A stretch of DNA of 45,911 nt, from contig JAPEUD010000014.1 in assembly GCA_026026165.1 (NCBI GenBank), positions 372,001 to 417,911 of the forward strand, given 5' to 3'. This stretch comes from Sarea resinae. Lineage: Eukaryota. Both the position numbers and the translations under genes were made by a program. The notes beneath the pieces are model-generated. The model had not been told where the DNA came from. It made no database searches and was given only the letters and a program-made list of their open reading frames with translations. Position 1 is the first letter of the stretch; the number at the start of each line of letters is the position of its first letter. Shown here in pieces: positions 3,049-44,012 of the stretch.

Positions 3049-4135
3049 GGCGACTTATCCGAACTTATGCCTCTTGGCGAGCAACTCAGCGCTGGCAGAT
3101 AAGGCAGACTTGTGGTCTTTGGTGCAGATAGGCAATTAAAAAGTCTCACAGGGATGACTTCATCGAAGTTCCATATCCGTCGGCAGTGTGTTGACATACA
3201 ATCACTTCAGATGGGCAGTCAAACAACTTGGACTTAGGTAGAGGCACCTCAGAACAACGAGCGTTGCCAGGTCACGAATCTTCGCGTAGATTGATCCTGT
3301 TTGCACGCGTCGCGCGATCAATGTAGATTAGATAAGGAATATGTCGAGTACCTTGTATTAGAGCCCTCGTCTGTGAACAGAAAGAGACAGAAGAGGCGGA
3401 GTCTGAATGAGTAGGAAATCTTGAACAGCCTATCACCTCATCATAGAGATATCGCCTACTGCTACCGAGTACCTTCCGTGGTCCTTCAAAGAGGAGTGAG
3501 AAAGGAAGAAAGAAAATACAGGGAGGAATTACTGTATGAATCAGATTCAATGAAAAGATCAAGGATAAAGATGTGATTCCAAGAGGCAATCTGTCTATTC
3601 GTGCAACCGTCATCTCATTCATCATTGCAGATTTCGAACCACACAAGGATAGCACCAGTTGCAACAGGATAACGCACTGTACAGGGAGGGAGGCTGAAGT
3701 GAAGTGCATAAATGAATGCATTCGGGACTATGTATCACAGCACATGGAGGGTATGTCCGTACCGCGCGCTTGTATTTGAGGCGTTGCCCATGACAACAAG
3801 TTTGCCGAGTGTCGCGACTACCCGATTTGGATCGCGATTGAGACTTACAGAACTTCGAGACGCCAAGCTGTCTATCCAAGCGCGACGACGAGGTCGACTC
3901 AGCATAACAACGACTATAGAGCGGTTCGGGTCCGCTCGACACTCTACAAGCAACGCACTACTTACCTCTGTCGACAGCAAACACTTCGTCAACTCCAGTC
4001 TTGACATCAGCTTCAACCTCTCAGGCCTAGCTCAAGTCACCATAAACATCTACCGCATAGAGCCACACCATGAATGGGACCGCTTGACTGGAAACATCCC
4101 CCTCTTTGTACGCGTGTGGTCGGGCGGTGCCGACG

Positions 4136-32617: not shown

Positions 32618-35175
32618 TCAAATCAATCTCTTCAGTGCCTCCACGGCCGCCTCTAAAACGCCCGGATTCTTCTCCCGCATGAGCACGGCTTTCAGAACCT
32701 CGACGCCGCCCTCCTGCTTCACTTTCTCGGTGCCCTGTCGCCCCGCCTCGCCCAACGCACACACAATGTTCTGCACGCACACGACGCCGCGATGCACAAG
32801 GCTTTCGTCATCATGTTCCTCGCAGAGACCCAAGAGGATCTTTACGCCGCGGTCGCGCGCCACGACCGCCTTGACCGCCTCATCCCACTCCGTTAGCATG
32901 GCAAGCGCACCGCCAGCTGCACGGCGCGTAGCCTCGTCTTCGGCATCCGCTAGAGCCAGAAGAATATGGAGTCTGTTGTTTGCGGCGGGGGAACCATCGG
33001 CAAATTTGGCGGTGGTTTCCGCCAAAGCCATGAGGTTGCAGATGAGCTCTACGGCGGCGCGTTGAAGGAGTGGGTTTGAGTGCAGGAGAAGTGATTCTGT
33101 GACGGGCTTAAAGGAGAGTTGGAGGATTAGGTGTCGGGTCGGATCGTCTGTGGAGGCGAGATTGGTGAGGGCTAGGAGGGACTCGAATGTGGGAAGAAGA
33201 TCGCGGGGGCCATTGTCGTCAAAGATACCATCGTCGTCGGAAGAAGGAAGGAGGAAGACGAGCGGACGAATGGCGGACGTGATGGGGAGGGCGGATGAGC
33301 CGAAAATATGAGAAGGGTTGACGGATATGAGTATTCGGGCTAGGGTGTGAGCGGCTGTGCGGCGCGAGACTATATCTGTTGCGGAGGCGGTGGTGTCGGG
33401 AATGGCGGAGTAGGCCTGGAGGATGAGCTTGACCGCCCCCTGTTGAGCCAGAGGACCACGGTTCTTCGAGTCTCTGGAAAGTGAGAGCAGTATAGTGAGA
33501 ATAAGGGAGAGCGCTGTTGGGGAAACCTTTCTGCTGATGGTAAGAAGAAGAGGGACGAGACCTGCATCGAGAACGGCTTTGCAGCGAACTGTCACGGCAG
33601 GATCTTTATTGAGGGGATCCGGCTCGAGATTGACTTTAGATGTGTTCGCGTAGGCTTTAAGTTGGGACAGCCGCTTCTGCTCCTCAGAGAGGTTGGGGAG
33701 GTATGAGGTTATGTTGACGAATATGTTGAGACCGCCGAAGATGATGCTGGAATTTGGGGGGGTATGCTCAAGGGTAGAAATTAAACTCTTGAGAAATGGC
33801 TTGTCTTTCGCAAGTCTCTCTTTTACTGTGGGCTGTAAAGACGTAAATGCAAGGCCTTCTATCGAGCTCTGCTTGTCGTTCACGCTTTCTTTGACCATCA
33901 TCTTTTGGAACATGTCTACCAGTGCATTGACACTTTTGGCTTCTTCCTGCACTCGCTGGTCTTTTCCGGTGCTATTCTCTCCACTGGGGCTCCTAATCTT
34001 AGCCAGTATGAGCGCAGCCATCCCTGGGCTCGGATCATTTCCGTCTTCCAGGATATCCTCCAGCCATTCGGAACAGTACTTCGATATTGCCTCGCGACAT
34101 GCTCGATCGATACAAGCAGCACTCAAAAGTTCCAGGGCAGCATGCTCCGCCTTTGAGCTTTTTAGCTTTTTGTTGACCGTGGACTCCAGCGACGGAACGA
34201 AGCCTTCTGTGAGGAAAAGGGAAGAGGCCATCGATGGTACAATAGGAAAGACGGCTGCCGCAACCGAGAGCGCCGTGATTAATTGATCGTTCGTATGCTT
34301 GGCGATCCGAGAAGTGACGAACTTGGTCAGGAGCGCATGGCCAGCATCCCCTGAGACCTCGAGATACTTTGCCGTAGCAAGAGTGGCCTGGCTTCGTACT
34401 TCTTGACTCCTTCGATTATCCAGTGAAGTCAGAATAGGGTCTAGCGTGTCTTCGTCGATCAGATATTTCAGCTTCTCGGCATCTGCTGCCAGAAGACGTG
34501 CGATTCCCCTCAAAGCTCGACCGGGGTGATCCTGCCCAGCTTCCATGAGCTTAGCAAGGAGTAGCTGAAAAACGTCATGTTCCATACGGTCCCTTGTTTC
34601 TTGTGAAGCCCAGGCCATGGTATCGAGAAGCATCAAAACAAGACCGCCAATGGCTGCATCGCCCTTCTCCCAAAGGCTCTCGAAGACTTGCGGCTGAGAT
34701 TCGTCGATCTGAGTCGCCAGGTATGCTCTTGCCCCTAAGCTTTGACGCAGAATACCACCGACCAATTCATCAGCAGTTGTCTCATCTGCTTCCACTGGCC
34801 GCTCCAGTAGAATCTTTAGACATTGTTCTCCCACGTCGTGTGATATTTGCCCGTTTGACCGTTCCACGAGCCGAAGAGCTTCCTTGCCGGCCGCTGCGTC
34901 CTTCTGCAGCACGAATCTGCGACATAGCTTTGCTAGAGGATCAGCAGCCTCTTCCTGCTGTATCTTTGCGAAGGCCGCCTTGACTTCTTTATTCTCGGGC
35001 GAGATGGACGCGGCCTCACGTAGCAACCGGGCACCTTCCTATCCGACACGAGGTTAGTGATTTGCACATCGATCATGAGCGTCGAGGCCCTAACCTCAAG
35101 TCGATCACGGGAGACTGATTCGAGTGCCCTTTGGGCCAGCTCTTGCGCTCTGGTATCATCCCCGGAGCTGGACAT
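32618..35175 (-). CDS. CRO1: UCS-domain myosin chaperone (Cro1/She4/Rng3/UNC-45 family), ~833 aa
   Basis: Exon 1 35175-35095, intron 35094-35039 (GTTAGG..CTAAC..TAG), exon 2 35038-32618. ARM-type motifs ELLSAACID, IEGLAFTSL, QLKAYAN, RGPLAQQGAVK, LARILISVNP, FESLLALTNLAS, RAAVELICNL, RRAAGGALAMLT, HRGVVC are typical of the UCS domain. Confidence 0.93.
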
Positions 35176-35666: not shown

Positions 35667-37041
35667 ATGAACGCCGTAGACGGCTCCGAACATTATGAAC
35701 GGGAATCAAACGGTAGCACATCCATCTGTTCAACATGTCTGCTCACCTACTGACTCTTCCCCTCAGAACCGCCTCCATCGCTCCTTACCGTCATCCTCGA
35801 CACCAATCCGCACGCCTGGTCCCTGCTCTCCTCCACCCTGCCGCTCTCCAAAGCCATTGCCAACATCCTCGTCTTCATCAACGCTCATCTGGCCTTCAAC
35901 TACGCCAACAAGGTCGCCGTCATAGCCAGCCACTCCCAACGCGCCCAATTCCTCTACCCTTCCCCGCCGTCCGCCTCCACATCTCTCGATCACCATGATG
36001 CCCCCCAACTACCCGCATCCGCTACGGGCCAAGAAGACACCGAGATGGCCGACGCACCTCCGAAACCGAAACTGAAACTCACCCTCAACGGCCGGAAACC
36101 TACGCCTTCCTCCGCCTCTCCAGCAGCTGAAGCCGGCCAGGCCCGCACAACAGACGACGCAAACAAATACCTGCCATTCCGCCTCGTCGAAGAAGAAGTC
36201 ATGTCGAACCTGCGTGCCCTCATCGCCTCCACCACGGCCTCGGATATCTCCACCACGAATAGCACGCAGATGGCGGGCGCGCTGACCCTGGCCCTCAGCT
36301 ATACCAACAAGCAAGCACTGGCCTACACGGAGAGCAATGGCGGCAGCGCCGGCGCCACGGGCGACCGAGGCGGCAACGACGGCCGCGAGCCGGAGAAGGC
36401 GAAACAGCTCCAAAGCCGCATCCTCGTCCTCAGCGTCTCGGGCGACCTGGCATTCCAGTACATACCGGTTATGAATTGCATCTTCGCCGCTCAAAGACAG
36501 GTATGCCTTACTCCCTCCCCCTTGCCCGCCCCCACCCTTGCTCCTCTGGCCTCTCGTGATCCCACACAAGCGCAGCATCTAACCAAGTTCTCCGACCCAG
36601 CGCATCCCCATCGACATTCTCAAAATCGCCGGCGACACGGTATTCCTGCAGCAAGCCTCGGACGCCACACGAGGCATCTACCTACCGCTGGACCCGCGCC
36701 AAGGCCTGCTGCAATACCTGATGATGGCGTACCTGCCGTCGCCACTCACGCGCCAGCACCTGATCCCGCCGACGCAGGTCAACGTCGACTTCCGCGCCGC
36801 GTGTTTCTGCCACAAGCGCGTCGTCGACGTCGGCTACGTCTGCAGCATCTGCCTGAGCATCTTCTGCCAACCCCCTGCCGCCGGCGAGTGCTTGACCTGC
36901 GGCACCCTGCTGGGCGTCGCTGACTATGGCCGCCGAGCTGCTGTTGTTGCCAGGAAGAAGAAGAAGAAGAGGAGACTTGATGGGGCCGGCGGCACGGGCG
37001 GCACGCCGACGCCGACGCCCGGAGGCACACCACTTCCGTGA
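35667..37041 (+). CDS. TFB4: TFIIH core subunit Tfb4 (p34/GTF2H3), ~406 aa
   Basis: Exons 35667-35712, 35767-36500, 36601-37041 (1221 nt). SLLTVILDTNPHAW, VFINAHLAFN, MAGALTLALSY, QYIPVMNCIFAAQ, FLQQASDATRGIY, and C-terminal Zn motif VDFRAACFCH...GYVCSICLSIFC...CLTCG. Confidence 0.96.
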
Positions 37042-37586
37042 AATCTTGATAGAATCGTCGCGGGTTCCGGAGTACAGGCATTTTCTTCTTCTCCACATTC
37101 AAGCGGGCGGGCTCAGGTAGAAAAGGCGCGCATTTTTCTATTATTTCCACTGTTGTTCATATCCTACCAACTAGTCGGAAAGCTAGATCTAAATCTCCAG
37201 CCACATTCAGCATCATAGAGACTCATTTTCAAACTTCAATTCAGTTCGCTTCTCGTTCCAGCCTCTACGTATAGCAACGTATTATGATCAGAGCACTACA
37301 TCACAGTCGATATCAACCAAATTGAAGGAAGCTTCAAGATGGAAAAGCACTCAGATAGAGATATATAACACATCGTATTCCAGACCACCACCACCACCAC
37401 CACCTCGTCCCGTCCTAACTTGGGACACAGCCAAAATCAGACCCACCGACCTCTCAGAGCCATACTTCTCCAACATTTCTAGCTCCTATTCCTAGTCCCA
37501 GCGCCACATTTCCAAGCCATGTCCTTAGATGCTCCTCCTCATCCCCATCGCTCCCCGCCTCTCTCTCTCTCTCTCATCAAAGCCAC

Positions 37587-37646
37587 CTATACACGCAGTT
37601 AGCCGTCTTTCCCAACTGACTCAAAACATAGGCAGGGAAGACTTAT
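37587..37646 (-). other. Terminal 60-nt intron of pre-TER with non-canonical 5' splice site AUAAGU (spliceosomal 3'-end cleavage signal)
   Basis: Minus strand reads ...GAGAAUUUUUUUU|AUAAGUcuucccugcc...acgGCUAACugcguguaUAG. 5'SS at 37646-37641, branch point GCUAAC at 37603-37598, 3'SS UAG ending at 37587. Confidence 0.88.
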
Positions 37647-37656
37647 AAAAAAAATT
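37647..37656 (-). other. Sm/Lsm binding site (AAUUUUUUUU) at the predicted mature 3' end of TER
   Basis: A + U8 run directly abutting the AUAAGU splice donor, the arrangement known for fungal telomerase RNAs. Confidence 0.85.
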
Positions 37657-39806
37657 CTCGAGCCATCCCCTCTCGAAGAGAGAGGACAGCTGACGGCCTC
37701 CCCGCCATCCCGTCTTACATCGCCCCGACCCCTCCCACCACAGGAACCCGCCGTTCTCTCTCTCCCGGTCGAAAAACAGAAGTACCCCGCACCATTTGCC
37801 CCACCGCGTAAAACACCAACGAATTCCAGAAAACACACATGGCAAGCTCGACTCGGGGCGCTTTCACCTTATCGAAACTGTACCACACGAGGAGAGAAGG
37901 ACAGACAAGCGCAAAGCTTTGAGCCTCACTCGAGAGAGGTCCCGCCTTCCACCCTCGTGCCGCCAGCGATAAGGGAACCCCGAAGGTCTTGGTGCAGACC
38001 AGAGGTATGTGTATGAGGTTTTCGTGCTTGTGCTTTTTGGGGAAGTACGGTGAGGGTCGTGGTTGCGGTAGTGAGGGGAGAGAGAGAGAAAGACGGATCC
38101 CCACGAGCTATCCCCGTCGTCAATCCTACTTCTGACATACCTGACCTTCGAAAACCCGCTCGGTCCAGTCCAAACGGTCATCCATATAGTCAACTTTGCT
38201 CTGCCAGGTCGAGCGCGATTTTCAAGCTTCTCTCAAGATGACCGCGCTCTCGAACGGTCGGACTTCCAAACCCTGGTCAAACGCCTTTTTCAAGGAGCTT
38301 TGCGGGGAAAGAACATCTCTCTATTTGTGGTGCAGTACTCTCAGAGACAAGTTTTATGTTTCCTCCCTCGCCTTTCACACGTCCGCACTTGACTCGCTGT
38401 TACGCAAAGCAATGGGACGGCTACTTGGCGAGAGGGCATTGAAAAGCGAACAAAAGACATCCTCAAAAACCGCTTTCGTCTCCCCGTATGAAGGGGGAGG
38501 ATGATGTCCAGCCTGCTGCTCCGAAGAGAGCAAGAGGACAGTGAATGTTGGGGCTCACCGTCGACCCGCGTGCTGAACACGCGAGGAGATGATTGACGCG
38601 GCTGGTCGAAACCTCGTCTCCTTGCAAGAGACGACTACAACTGTGGCTGGAGCCGCATCGTAGGTTTTCTGAGCTGCAGGCTGGGTAGAAAAAGTGGGGT
38701 GGAGAGCAGAGTATTCAAGCAGCCTGGAAAGATGCTTGAAGTGGTAGGGGAGACATACGGGACGTCTTCTCTTTCGCCGCCATGATGCTCTTTGAAGGTT
38801 TTCGATGTGAATAGTGTTGTCCCTTCCACGACCCAAGACCATACAGGTGTTTGATAAAGGGTCGATCGCTTGCATCTTCCTTCTCTCTTCTATCGCCTCA
38901 AAGCCTGCAATGATCAAGAACAACCAGCCCTCTGTCCTGTCAAGATTCAGACGTCCGAAGCAGACGCGTAGCCATGTTTTACAACTCACCCACCAGGGCA
39001 GCGATGCGAGTGTAAAATGATGCAATCAAATGCAGTTCTCTTTTTGTAAGGTCAAGCATCTCGCTACATGTCTAGAAAGAAGCTGCCCAGCCAAGCCTGA
39101 TCCCTGATGGGACCGTGAAGGCCATCTCGGAGGAGGCACGGAGCAGCTTTTCCAGACACGATTCCGACGATTGAATGCTATAGACCATTGCCCCTCAGGG
39201 CGAGATACATGCGTGATGCATTCTTTGGTAGGCAAGCACCACTAATGTGGAATTCGACGTGCTCATGTCTTCGTCTGAAACAGGAAGAGAAGCTTGCAGT
39301 CTCTCACAACGCAGAACCTCGAAAATGATAGAAAAAGAGAGGTCAGACTGTCAAGCACCTTATATCAATACCGATTGGCCCATTTAACGGGTGTCGAAAG
39401 AGCAATGTGTATTCGCCTTCAGAGCTCCGTTGCAGCAGAAAGAATGTGAAGAACCCAAAGACAATCCCAATAATGGGTGCCTGATATCTCCCATCCACTC
39501 TCTCCCGAAGATTTCCACAACGCCACGCATCAGAAAGACGATCTCAAAAGTGACCAGAGTATATGTTCGGCTAGAGGGAATCGACGCGCGCTCTCACAGA
39601 GAGGCTTACCAGACTAGACGCATGAAACACCTCATATTCAAAGGTCCAACAGGACTCCGAACGTCAGACCCTCTTTTCATCCCCCCAGAGAACACGGAAC
39701 TCAGCCTTGCGGCGAGGAAACGACGATCACCAGAGAGCTTAATAGGAAAGATGACAACTATGGACCGCAAAACTGCTTTCCAAAGGAAAGACAACCCAAC
39801 GAGTAC

Positions 39807-39815
39807 TTAGGGTTA
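39807..39815 (-). other. Telomerase RNA template 5'-UAACCCUAA-3' (1.5 copies of TTAGGG complement)
   Basis: Plus strand TTAGGGTTA at 39807-39815, flanked by non-telomeric bases (C and A). It lies one nucleotide 3' of the 3' strand of a strong helix. Confidence 0.88.
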
Positions 39816-40253
39816 AGCTCCGGAACCCATCCTCCCCATACCGCCATTCAATCTTTCGATTGTGACACGCCCGCGGGTGCGCTGGAACTCATTGAGACCA
39901 TGCTATGAGGCTCGAGTAGCAGCTCCCGCCGTACCATGCGCAGGCGGTGATGGGGGGCTGTTAAACATTCCTCGCGCAAGGCTGGAAGATGGGAGCCGGA
40001 AAACTGTGTGGAAAGTGCGCTGCTTTGTGATTACTCGAGAACGAGCGAGAGAATGAGATGGAAGCCGAAGGTTCATTGAGAGCGCGTCTTGAGATGGCGT
40101 GGAACGCGTTCACTGGCGGAGTGAAAGCTGTACTGGATGTCATGTGTAGACTGGAAGTAGAGCGGTCGAAAGATAGATTATCAGAGGGCATGATGCTCAG
40201 AGGATTGACGAAGATGAGGATAGTCGTTGGTGAGAAGGATATGGACGGTGTAT

Positions 40254-40510
40254 GAAGAGAGAAGAGGAAGAAGCGGAAGAAAGAGAGGAAAGTAAACACG
40301 GACAGCTCGAGTGACCGGCTCGAGTGACCGATACGCAGGCGCGTCGCTGACTAAGCAAATTCACCACGCGCTTTCATGTGATCTATCATTTTGCACTTTA
40401 CCGGCCAGGATGACACAACACCAAAGATTCACCCAATCTATCAAGGACTCGGTGCTGTGAAGCATCTAGAATCCCAAAAGCTATATGACAAGTCCGTGGA
40501 GGTCCAAGCC
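40254..40510. promoter_or_regulatory. Short bidirectional promoter region between TER (-) and RTP1 (+)
   Basis: Minus-strand pyrimidine tract 40291-40254 just upstream of the inferred TER 5' end. GTAAACA (forkhead-type) at 40292-40298, perfect 13-bp tandem duplication GCTCGAGTGACCG at 40305-40330, CGCG cores near 40340 and 40367. Confidence 0.55.
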
Positions 40511-43500
40511 ATGCCCCTCAGTGCGGTCGAGGCAGCTTTTGCGAATGCGAAAAGCTTCCTAGCTCCAGTATTAAATCGAGGTATCTGAGATATTGCATGA
40601 ATCGTCAGGCTGTTGATTTGGTTGATAGCTAAGCTAACGAATACCTCAGCGTCGATCGAGAGAGCGCGCTCCAAGTCAATCATCGAATTACTTTCTACTA
40701 ATGCCCAGGTTCATCATGGGGCCGAGTCAAAAGGTCACGTGCTTGAAAAGGCTATCAGCTTGATTCAGAGCATTCACGATGCTTTGAAAGCTGATGCCCA
40801 GGCTGAGAAAATTTTTGAATATGATCCACAGAGCCGCCGAATCGTGTATGCTCTTCTGGACCTAATATCATTGGAGGGTATCTATCCTTCCTTATCTTCG
40901 GGTGTTGGTATACCAATCGAACGTCGAGTCAAGTCTGTATTACTCGCTGGAGTAGTCGCCAAACCAACGACATCAGAATCAGCAGACCGGCATGATCAGG
41001 ATCTGTCGTTACTGAAAAATATCATTGATGCTTCCTCGAATTTCACGGCAGAACAGGGCAAAGGTATCGAGCCAATCATTCGTGATAGGATCCTCGTGGA
41101 CATTATCTGCGGGTCTGCCGAGCTCGCGTTCGGCCCTTTCTCGGACAGCAGCAACAAGGCAAAGTATGCAGCTACGTTCGAGAAACTGTTGGATGAGTAT
41201 GTCTGTCCTTTAATTATAAATCCCATGTATTTTAGAGCAAATCCAAGACTCCAACATCGTCTTTCATGCCTTGAGATTGGCTGAAACATATCATAGTTCA
41301 CCTACGTCTACTCTTCTCCCTATCTTGACCTCCCTTCTAACGCCGACTACGCCGACATGGCTACGCCCCCATTTCTCAACTCCACTCTCTTTGGTGCCGC
41401 TCCGGTCACATGGCGTGCGTCAGACAATAGAATTCATAGCTTCCACCGCCCGAGGTCCACCTCCATTCCAGAACGATAACGTTAATCCTCCATCAGCAAC
41501 AACCTCTACTGTATCACAGGGTCCCTCTTTGCCCATCGAAGCTTTGACACAGGCTTCAAAATTGCTTGCTTCTGTGCCCAGCGCCTTGACGCCTGATCAG
41601 TATTTCTCGCGGATCGCGCCTCAGCTTCTTGATTTACTAGATAGCGAAGCTGGCCCTGGAATGAGCAAAGCAGCAAGCTTTATTATTGGTGGAGGCATAC
41701 TGAATAGAAGGGCGTATGGAGCCCCTGGGACCATTGGATGGCGGCTCTTTGCCCAGCCAATATTGGCGAAGATCGACCCTGGATTGGACATTCAGGCCTC
41801 CATCCCTAATCAACCGGGCCCCGGTATCCACGAGTTTGATACTGTGCTAGTATCTGAGAGTGATCTCAATTTGGCCTTGACAAGGCTCGCTACTCTTATA
41901 ACATCTCACCCCAACCCTGCGCTTGCCAAAAGGCTTTTATCACGGCTGATGTTGCCACTTTGGTCTTTACGTTGCTTTTCCCGAAAGATGGGGAACTCGA
42001 CCTGGTGCGAGCGAGCTTCAAGTCTCTTAGAGACTTACTTCAAGGTTTCCGCCGATGCAGAGCAATTAGGTAAATTTGCAAGACAACTGCTCTGGGATGG
42101 GAGGCCTTCGTGGGAATATGCGTCTACTAAAGGGGGAGGAGTTGAAATTAGACGAACGTCTGATAAGACCACAGCGCCAAAAAATATGGTTGAATATGTT
42201 GAGAGCATTGACGACCGAGTGGACGAGTTCCTCAGACTTACTCAGTCTGGTGCCGTGGACGACGAACGACTTGGCGCCTTCTTCCTGGGTATCACTCGAC
42301 GCTGGCTTCTAGGCATGGAAGAGACGTCACCGTCCCAGCACGTCCTAGAGCCGGCATCTCAAAATTCTACGCAAGACCCAGCACAGATGCTGGTCGATGC
42401 CAAGATCGTCCAAAAAATGCTGGAACAGCAAAAAGAGAAACTCGCAAATAATCCTACACAAATCTTCGAACTCGTAAAGCAGCTCCTGAGTACCTTTGTC
42501 GAAAATCAGAACGCGCGATTTCAACGGAGGAGCAACCTTCAAAACCCGTCACTGTCTAGCCTAGGCAACATCGCCCGCGAAGCTACCGAGGAAGATCCAG
42601 GGGGCGCTGGTGAAGCGGGTTCTGAAGACGAGCCGACAGATATGGCCTCCATCGCTCTCAGTCTCCTCAGCACGATCCTATCTTCTCCTGATCTATCTCT
42701 TACGGAAGAAGACACACGGGTCCTATCCAGCATAGAGCCCTCCCTATCGTATCTCTCCTCTTCAAACAACTCCATCCCTTCATCTCTCTCCATGGCTGCC
42801 ATGAACCTGTCATCGCTCCTGACCCTCCAGGCTTCTATCCCCTCTACAACCTCGTCTTCCCTCAAAGCCTCCGACATCGAAGACCGCAAGACACACCAGC
42901 TCGCTCTGACCTATCTCACCGATGCCCTGCCTCCTGTCCGAGCACAAGGCCTGTCTCTCCTCACCGCTCTTATCTCGTCCCGCTCACCTGTCCTCGATGT
43001 CCCAGCCACCACGATCCTACTTCTCAGCCTGCTCCAAGACGATGACGAGTTCATCTACCTCAACGCCGTGAAAGCTCTCGGCGAGCTCAGCCAGAAACAT
43101 TCTCGGACCATCGTCAAGAATCTGGTAAGCCGGTATGTCGACCGTGAGGAGGAACTTGGACTTGATCAGCGCCTGAGACTCGGTGAGGCTCTTCTAAAGA
43201 CGGCAGAAAGTCTCGGCGAGGCCCTGGTCGGCGACACCGCCACCACGCTTGCAGAAGGCATGATCGCCGTTTCAGGGCGGCGCGGCACGCGGCCCAAAGC
43301 CGCCGCAGAACACGCCCGGCGCATCAACCTGCAAGAACTCCGCAACAAAGAAGCTGCCGATGCGTGGGGCGGAGAATTGCCGGACCTCCCTGCGATGAAC
43401 TCGTCCTCGGACTTGCAAGACGGCGCCCTCGACCGCGAAGAGAATGAAGCCTTATCCGCCATCCTCGCGGGCTGGGAAGGCAACCGCGCCACAGAAGACG

Positions 43501-44012
43501 TCCGGATCCGCACGTCGGCGCTCTCGGTCCTCGGCGTCGCCCTCGAAACCAATATCGCCGGCATCGGCGCCGTCCTCACGTCCACAGCTATCGACCTCGC
43601 CATCTCGATCCTGACGCTTGAGAATACGGGCGAGGAGAAGGCCATCCTCCGCCGAGCCGCGGTGCTGCTTTTCATGAGTCTGCTCAAGGCGCTGGATCGA
43701 GCGCGCGAGGAGGGCCGGAAGCTGGGGTTCGGACTTGCTGGAGAGAGCTTAGGCGATGTCATCAGAGTGCTCGAGTATGTGCGGGCTACTGATGGCGATT
43801 GGATCGTTAAGGGACATGCGGGGGCTGTGGTGGAGAGTCTGGAGGCTTGGAAGGAGAAAAGTTTGGTGTTTGGGATGGCGGAAGGGATGGAGAGGGAGAG
43901 AGGCGGGCATGGTATGGCTCCGCCTATGCTGGGGGAGAGACTGGCGGGTTTGAGAGTGGATCCTACGGGGCAGGGACGCGGCTCCAGGCCACGCATTGAA
44001 GAGATTGAATGA
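40511..44012 (+). CDS. RTP1: Rtp1/Tango6-family HEAT/ARM protein (RNA polymerase II assembly/nuclear import factor), ~1110 aa
   Basis: Exons 40511-40580, 40650-41196, 41297-44012 (3333 nt). LLDLISLEGIYPSL, YFSRIAPQLLDLL, and C-terminal motifs LTDALPPVRAQGL..LLSLLQDDDEFIYLNAVKAL, RLRLGEAL, DVRIRTSALSVLG, LRRAAV, DGDWIVKGHA are characteristic of the RTP1 C1/C2 regions. Confidence 0.88.

Follow-up and report, generated by a model that had tools for sequence, protein, structure and literature searches.

A short segment on the minus strand of the window, the whole stretch of 45,911 bases of DNA analysed here, raises the question of how the 3' end of the RNA encoded there is made. In this segment, a run of eight U residues directly precedes AUAAGU, which resembles a 5' splice site except that the first intron position is A, and a branch-point sequence and an AG follow at intron-like distances. 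The initial annotation had interpreted the arrangement as an Sm site fused to a noncanonical 5' splice site, at which spliceosomal cleavage would generate the 3' end of a telomerase RNA. The evidence assembled below indicates that the host of this segment is very probably the telomerase RNA gene of a filamentous ascomycete, encoded on the minus strand of the window, and that the 3' end of its RNA would be made by the first step of splicing only, an interpretation built by analogy with characterized fungal systems.

Each of the elements named in the initial annotation is found at its assigned position, to the base, on the minus strand (Table 1). When positions 38400-35400 are read as the reverse complement, the order is GGCUCGAGAA-UUUUUUUU-AUAAGU-(37 nt)-GCUAAC-UGCGUGUA-UAG. 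The intron spans 37646-37587 and is 60 nt long, and 12 nt separate the branch A (37599) from the G of its terminal AG. The size of the intron, the branch point about 12 nt from the 3' splice site, and the presence of A instead of G at +1 had all been claimed previously and are borne out by the sequence. After the first splicing step, the predicted 3'-OH would belong to U37647, the last U of the tract. This U8 run is the longest T-run of the gene, which has four T5 runs in its interior, and a search for poly(A) signals 3' of the intron returned just weak motifs near 37087-37076.

The composite pattern T5-ATAAGT-N25-55-GCTAAC-N5-25-YAG matches once among the 45,911 bases of the window when both strands are searched. 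In 100 dinucleotide-preserving shuffles of the window, the same pattern gave a mean of 0.00 matches, with none of the 100 shuffles containing it. A looser regular expression recovered no second ATAAGT-type intron-like composite in the window, nor does the window hold a second instance of a run of five or more T residues followed by ATAAGT. One match where 0.00 are expected, combined with the conservation in relatives described below, places the module far beyond chance.

Table 1. Features of the telomerase RNA locus, its 3' processing module and the adjacent genes (window coordinates)
Feature	Positions	Strand	Basis or remark
Telomerase RNA gene body, ~2.4 kb mature RNA	37647-40050	minus	Predicted 3' end 37647; 5' end merely placed near 40050
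Template TAACCCTAA, 1.5 telomere repeats, specifies TTAGGG	39815-39807	minus	Single match in window
Three-way junction (CR4/5-like, P6/P6.1) region	38346-38543	minus	RF02462 model 1192-1381, 29.4 bits, E 2.2e-6
Conserved 3'-domain block	37907-37949	minus	RF02462 model 1648-1690, 25.3 bits, E 4.1e-5
Predicted terminal hairpin, 14-bp stem, UUC loop	37691-37661	minus	MFE and centroid folds
AA + U8 tract (Sm/Lsm-like)	37656-37647 (AA 37656-37655, U8 37654-37647)	minus	Sequence reading
Noncanonical 5' splice site AUAAGU, A at +1	37646-37641	minus	Sequence reading; 6/6 columns invariant
Branch-point sequence GCUAACU (GCUAAC 37603-37598), branch A 37599	37603-37597	minus	7/7 columns invariant
3' splice site UAG	37589-37587	minus	12 nt from branch A
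Presumed discarded 'exon 2' of precursor	37400-37586	minus	Nominal extent; G/purine-rich, (GA)n ~37570-37555
Tfb4 (TFIIH subunit) homologue	36045-36923	plus	Convergent with telomerase RNA
RTP1/TANGO6-like gene	40613-44012	plus	Divergent; Pfam RTP1_C1, E 2.8e-31
UNC45/She4-like gene	32618-35026	minus	Neighbour of telomerase RNA locus

The identity of the host gene as a Pezizomycotina-type telomerase RNA is supported by a template, by two collinear matches to RF02462, by open reading frames that lack Pfam families, and by blocks that align to telomerase RNAs from metagenomes. The 9-nt template word TAACCCTAA has one match in the window compared to 0.13 expected, and this match lies about 2.16 kb upstream of the module on the same strand. 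Both local matches to RF02462 (Telomerase_Asco) were obtained in an E-value search of 37300-40300 and are collinear on one strand. The gathering cut-off of this family is 30 bits, with the junction match 0.6 bit below it, and a search of the whole window at gathering score yielded no Rfam match. Weak matches to ROSE, ceN109 and Pab91 in the E-value search were dismissed as falling far under the respective cut-offs. All four open reading frames tested inside the gene body (112-156 aa) are without a Pfam family.

Relatives of the locus were sought among metagenome contigs scanned with a 20-base motif, which produced 20 loci. Since this motif was taken from the junction of the window itself, the relatives are a sample selected through that element. 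Ten of the 20 loci carry Telomerase_Asco matches of 47-677 bits, with E values of 2.1e-10 or better. The match is full-length in L004 and L015 (676.8 bits), and the remaining scores are 50.7 bits for L001, L003 and L020, and 47 bits for L006, L008, L010, L012 and L013. One additional locus, L018, has the template context on a contig that stops 51 nt past the junction. The other nine loci (L002, L005, L007, L009, L011, L014, L016, L017 and L019) have neither a telomerase match nor the template word, and were treated as chance matches that serve as a control set. In L009, a cobalamin riboswitch occupies positions 1683-1818 (63.4 bits), which marks this contig as bacterial and unrelated.

Redundancy among the confirmed relatives must be accounted for when counting them. 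L001 equals L003, L004 equals L015, and L006, L008, L013, L010 and L012 are near-identical (L006 and L010 agree at 4001 of 4050 columns), so that with L020 there are roughly four lineages besides the window. Among the eight sequences of the alignment, four are near-identical to one another, and the alignments discussed here therefore represent about five independent lineages, the window included. The sequence context that flanks the template, GGARCTTAACCCTAAG, is common to L004/L015, to L006, L008, L010, L012 and L013, to L018 and to L020. The block at 40000-39500, which holds the template/pseudoknot region, is conserved in sequence with L006, L010 and L020. The 5' end near 40050 is the position at which conservation with these same three loci starts, and it is not a mapped terminus.

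Gene order offers a further point of comparison. An RTP1 homologue lies upstream of the telomerase RNA, and on the opposite strand, in L004 and L015 (tblastn E 2e-5, 34% identity over 89 aa), where the homologous stretch takes up oriented positions 3-233. In tblastn searches of the metagenome loci, the Tfb4 open reading frame and the N-terminal RTP1 open reading frame had no match, and the large RTP1 open reading frame matched L004/L015 only. The presence of RTP1 beside the telomerase RNA in both the window and L004/L015 suggests an old synteny. On the other side of the gene, the interval from the Tfb4 stop (36923) to the intron end (37587) must contain the 3' ends of both genes. Across the 46 kb of gene-bearing fungal DNA, the same type of regular expression written for canonical signals (GTRNGT...CTRAC...YAG) finds one composite. 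Ordinary introns here must therefore carry looser signals than the telomerase RNA intron, in which the branch site and, except at +1, the 5' splice site are perfect consensus.

The initial annotation had made conservation in close relatives one of the points on which its interpretation should stand or fall. All 10 Rfam-confirmed loci, with at least 1,255 nt of downstream sequence each, carry the U-tract, ATAAGT, GCTAACT and AG. In the nine chance loci, no hexamer resembling a 5' splice site follows a T-run, four of these controls having just 322-1,015 nt downstream. The module is located 530-943 nt downstream of the junction in the relatives. In the seven sequences measured, window included, introns are 47-60 nt in length, and each branch A is followed by an AG at a distance of 9-13 nt.

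An alignment of 220 nt around the site (eight sequences, five lineages) has 27 invariant columns, and 17 of these correspond to the four U residues nearest the 5' splice site region, the six positions of AUAAGU, and the seven positions of GCUAACU. Next to nothing can be aligned across the eight sequences in the intron spacer, in the lead-in or in the downstream sequence. Over longer distances, the window agrees with L006 in 1649 of 4260 columns, which sets a background identity of ~40%, and the identity of the window to its relatives rises only in 40000-39500, in 38800-38300 (the junction), and in 38000-37900, reaching 0.60 with L006 and L010 at the conserved 3'-domain block (37907-37949). That every position of AUAAGU and GCUAACU is invariant while the surroundings can barely be aligned argues for selection on recognition by the spliceosome. 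ATAAGT starts at 2541 in L015, immediately after the last base of the full-length Rfam match (2540), a coincidence of model end and 5' splice site that is partly definitional. A small departure occurs in L012, where the 3' splice site at ~1045 reads AAG and members of the same near-identical group read UAG, such that the AG is kept and the pyrimidine is lost. Such a substitution would fit weak constraint on the site used in the second step.

The U-tract is conserved in a different manner. Among the relatives its length is 5-11, with T5 in L020, T8 in L010 and L012, T10 in L006 and L013, T11 in L008, T7CTT in L001, and T5GGAGG in L004. Because lengths of 8, 10 and 11 occur among loci that are ~99% identical, the tract behaves as a slippage-prone homopolymer. 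The base on its 5' side is A in the window and in L020, G in L006, L008, L010, L012 and L013, and C in L001 and L004. The Sm consensus, as quoted in PMC3603654, is AU5-6GR, whereas AAU8 of the window is followed by the AU of AUAAGU and not by GR. The same source gives the 3' ends of Aspergillus telomerase RNAs as CGGC3-5U7-12 followed by AUAAGU and GCUAACU (Kuprys 2013, PMC3603654). A run of U8, which the initial annotation considered longer than usual, is thus unremarkable beside U5-U11 in the relatives and the U7-12 reported for Aspergilli in that paper. The naming of the element as an Sm site fares less well. The U-tract itself is conserved, but the flanking purines of the consensus vary by lineage, which leaves the Sm label unproven.

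Predicted structure around the tract was evaluated by folding. The hairpin at 37691-37661 ends 6 nt before AAU8, and the 80-nt fold that contains it has z = -2.9. When the last 74 nt plus the 5' splice site were folded for representatives of the lineages, all six showed a stable hairpin whose end lies 0-6 nt upstream of the U-tract (z from -1.9 to -5.0), and the U-tract and 5' splice site were unpaired in four of the six. The tract is partly paired in L001, in the centroid fold as well, and the U5 of L004 lies in a hairpin loop. For the window, the 80-nt fold shows pairing of upstream sequence with part of the U-run and with the beginning of AUAAGU. In a 211-nt segment, the MFE and centroid folds leave both the U-tract and the 5' splice site unpaired. 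This 211-nt fold around the site is no more stable than those of shuffled sequences (z = -0.98), and a consensus structure for the last 110 nt of the eight sequences, the alignment of which is poor, reached -0.31 kcal/mol without usable covariation. The base composition of the site is skewed, with a G content of 0.41 in the last 150 nt of the RNA and 0.44 in the first 150 nt after the 3' splice site (purine 0.71), compared to 0.24 in the gene body. Two repeats, (GA)n at ~37570-37555 and (GGT)n near 37400, lie downstream of the 3' splice site. The G-rich setting recurs in L006, L010, L012 and L020, and it is absent in L001 and L004.

The series of events that would best account for these features begins with a precursor that extends beyond 37587. 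The spliceosome would assemble on AUAAGU and on the perfect branch sequence GCUAACU, and the 2'-OH of A37599 would attack the phosphate between U37647 and A37646. The 5' exon, which is the telomerase RNA, would thereby be released with the U8 tract at its end. Since the first base of the intron is A and not G, the 3' splice site presumably could not be docked for the second step, and the lariat-exon 2 intermediate would be discarded rather than ligated. The hairpin and the terminal U-tract might then be bound and protected by Sm proteins, Lsm2-8, or both, and a few of the terminal U residues may be trimmed. Cleavage, the block to the second step, and the identity of the bound proteins are carried over here from work on A. 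niger and Neurospora crassa. In N. crassa, spliceosomal cleavage at the 3' end of the telomerase RNA reportedly uses AUAAGU.

The closest experimental precedent comes from studies in which the A. niger AUAAGU element was placed in S. pombe TER1, producing cleaved, non-polyadenylated RNA that ends within the U-rich site (Kannan 2015, PMC4299874). In that work, A at +1 is necessary for the cleaved form with the A. niger sequence and spliced RNA is barely detectable. With an A1G change, the amount of the cleaved form falls by a factor of more than 10 and the spliced product predominates; activity is almost lost and telomeres become shorter. The paper also notes that G1A mutations block the second step in yeast and human introns (PMC4299874). 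Spliceosomal cleavage is stated for the N. crassa telomerase RNA in PMC9564094, and both PMC9564094 and PMC4993307 describe such cleavage, with a distinct 5' splice site, for filamentous-fungal and N. crassa telomerase RNAs. The proposal of the initial annotation that this locus uses the AUAAGU mechanism gains support from the telomerase RNA that hosts the element, from the presence of the module in all 10 related loci, and from the published A1G effect in the Aspergillus sequence (PMC4299874), with cleavage itself extrapolated from those systems. By analogy with the A. niger construct, the mature RNA may end at more than one position of the U-tract rather than exactly at 37647.

There are both likenesses and differences between this module and known telomerase RNA 3' ends. 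The telomerase RNAs of A. niger, A. oryzae and other Aspergilli likewise have a U-rich tract directly before AUAAGU, an identical GCUAACU, a short intron with a nearby AG, a position at the 3' end of a ~2-kb RNA, a TTAGGG-type template, and a hairpin before the U-tract. They differ in the lead-in, which is GAGAA-U8 in the window and CGGC3-5U7-12 in Aspergillus. The RNA of the window is also too diverged to match the Rfam model in full, with two local matches of 29.4 and 25.3 bits compared to 677 bits for L004/L015. From the junction to the 3' end there are 826 nt in the window and 540 nt in L004/L015, and the module of the window is G-rich on both sides. The N. crassa telomerase RNA, compared here by its published description, uses spliceosomal cleavage (PMC9564094). 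Its length is 2049 nt (Qi 2013, PMC3592445), and 73 Pezizomycotina telomerase RNAs have been published (PMC3592445). The ~2.4 kb predicted for the RNA of the window, the 5' end of which is unmapped, is somewhat longer. As judged from sequence, the module belongs to the Aspergillus/Neurospora type, in which a 5' splice site of the form AUA(A/C)GU immediately follows a U-rich tract, at every point that can be tested at this level.

The S. pombe TER1 RNA presents a related solution. Its 3' end is also made by the first transesterification beside an Sm/Lsm site, from a precursor with a terminal intron, but PMC4299874 describes a canonical GU 5' splice site, a strong branch site, and a long distance from the branch to the 3' splice site. 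In the window, the +1 position is A and the branch-to-AG distance is 12 nt, and thus a block to the second step would rest on a different basis than in S. pombe. Cleavage of the S. pombe type was rejected for these same two reasons. U12-type AT-AC introns have the 5' splice site ATATCC and a terminal AC, and this intron class was rejected for the window, where the 5' splice site is ATAAGT and the intron ends in AG.

Explanations other than first-step cleavage of a telomerase RNA precursor must also be weighed. It is extremely improbable that the locus is no functional telomerase RNA 3' end at all, whether because the motif arose by chance, because the gene is a decayed paralogue, or because a Pol III-type transcript terminates at T8. 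The Rfam result at gathering score and the rank of T8 among the T-runs of the gene can be cited for such an explanation, and a second copy might exist elsewhere in the genome. Against it stand the chance expectation of 0.00 and the sharing of the module, the template context and the junction with Rfam-confirmed telomerase RNAs. A Pol III terminator was rejected in particular: Pol III products do not resemble a ~2.4-kb body that contains four T5 runs, and if Pol III terminated at the T-run, the splice signals conserved on its 3' side would be without function. It is quite unlikely, if somewhat less so, that the RNA is a true telomerase RNA finished by another route, such as termination, exonucleolytic trimming back to the hairpin and U-tract, or complete AU-AG splicing, with AUAAGU and the branch site having a minor or quality-control function. 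A stable hairpin plus U8 might be enough to halt a 3'-5' exonuclease or to bind Lsm proteins or La, and the AG that all seven measured sequences retain 9-13 nt from the branch A, in the manner of ordinary introns, would be unnecessary if only the first step mattered. Yet the invariance of AUAAGU and GCUAACU argues for selection on spliceosome recognition, and with the A. niger sequence A at +1 is needed for the cleaved form, while G1A blocks the second step (PMC4299874).

The most serious doubt concerns the U-tract and leaves the cleavage mechanism standing. It is possible, though on balance doubtful, that the tract is not the site of an Sm ring but rather an oligo-U ligand for Lsm2-8 or La, or a pyrimidine tract that is tolerated beside the 5' splice site. 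The conservation of the U-run alone fits this alternative, given a 5' neighbour that is A, G or C depending on the lineage and a 3' neighbour that is A, not G/R. So does a length that differs even between the near-identical L010 (T8), L006 (T10) and L008 (T11), and after cleavage the tract would be terminal, lacking any 3' purine. On the opposite side, L004/L015 have a canonical-looking U5GG before AUAAGU, and a hairpin sits next to the U-tract, as it does at many Sm sites. Sm and Lsm proteins also reportedly act in sequence in S. pombe, which is counted against a tract without an Sm function. Moreover, the equivalent Aspergillus tract is called Sm-like in PMC3603654 and PMC4299874. A more elaborate proposal, and an unlikely one, concerns the lineage comprising the window, L006-L013 and L020: Lsm2-8 or La would bind the hairpin and oligo-U tail directly, without an Sm ring step, and the G-rich flanks, perhaps acting as a G-quadruplex or a purine-rich enhancer, would help to bring in or hold up the spliceosome. 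If true, the known cleavage pathway would have a variant specific to this lineage.

Spliceosomal cleavage as a mechanism, the part played by A at +1, and the long U-tract have all been published already. What this locus contributes is the annotation of a telomerase RNA gene that the standard threshold of Rfam misses, with its predicted 3' end fixed to the base. It also adds several independent and strongly diverged lineages in which AUAAGU and GCUAACU are invariant although their surroundings have changed. These additions support the published view that splicing halted after its first step is the general way in which filamentous ascomycetes finish their telomerase RNA.
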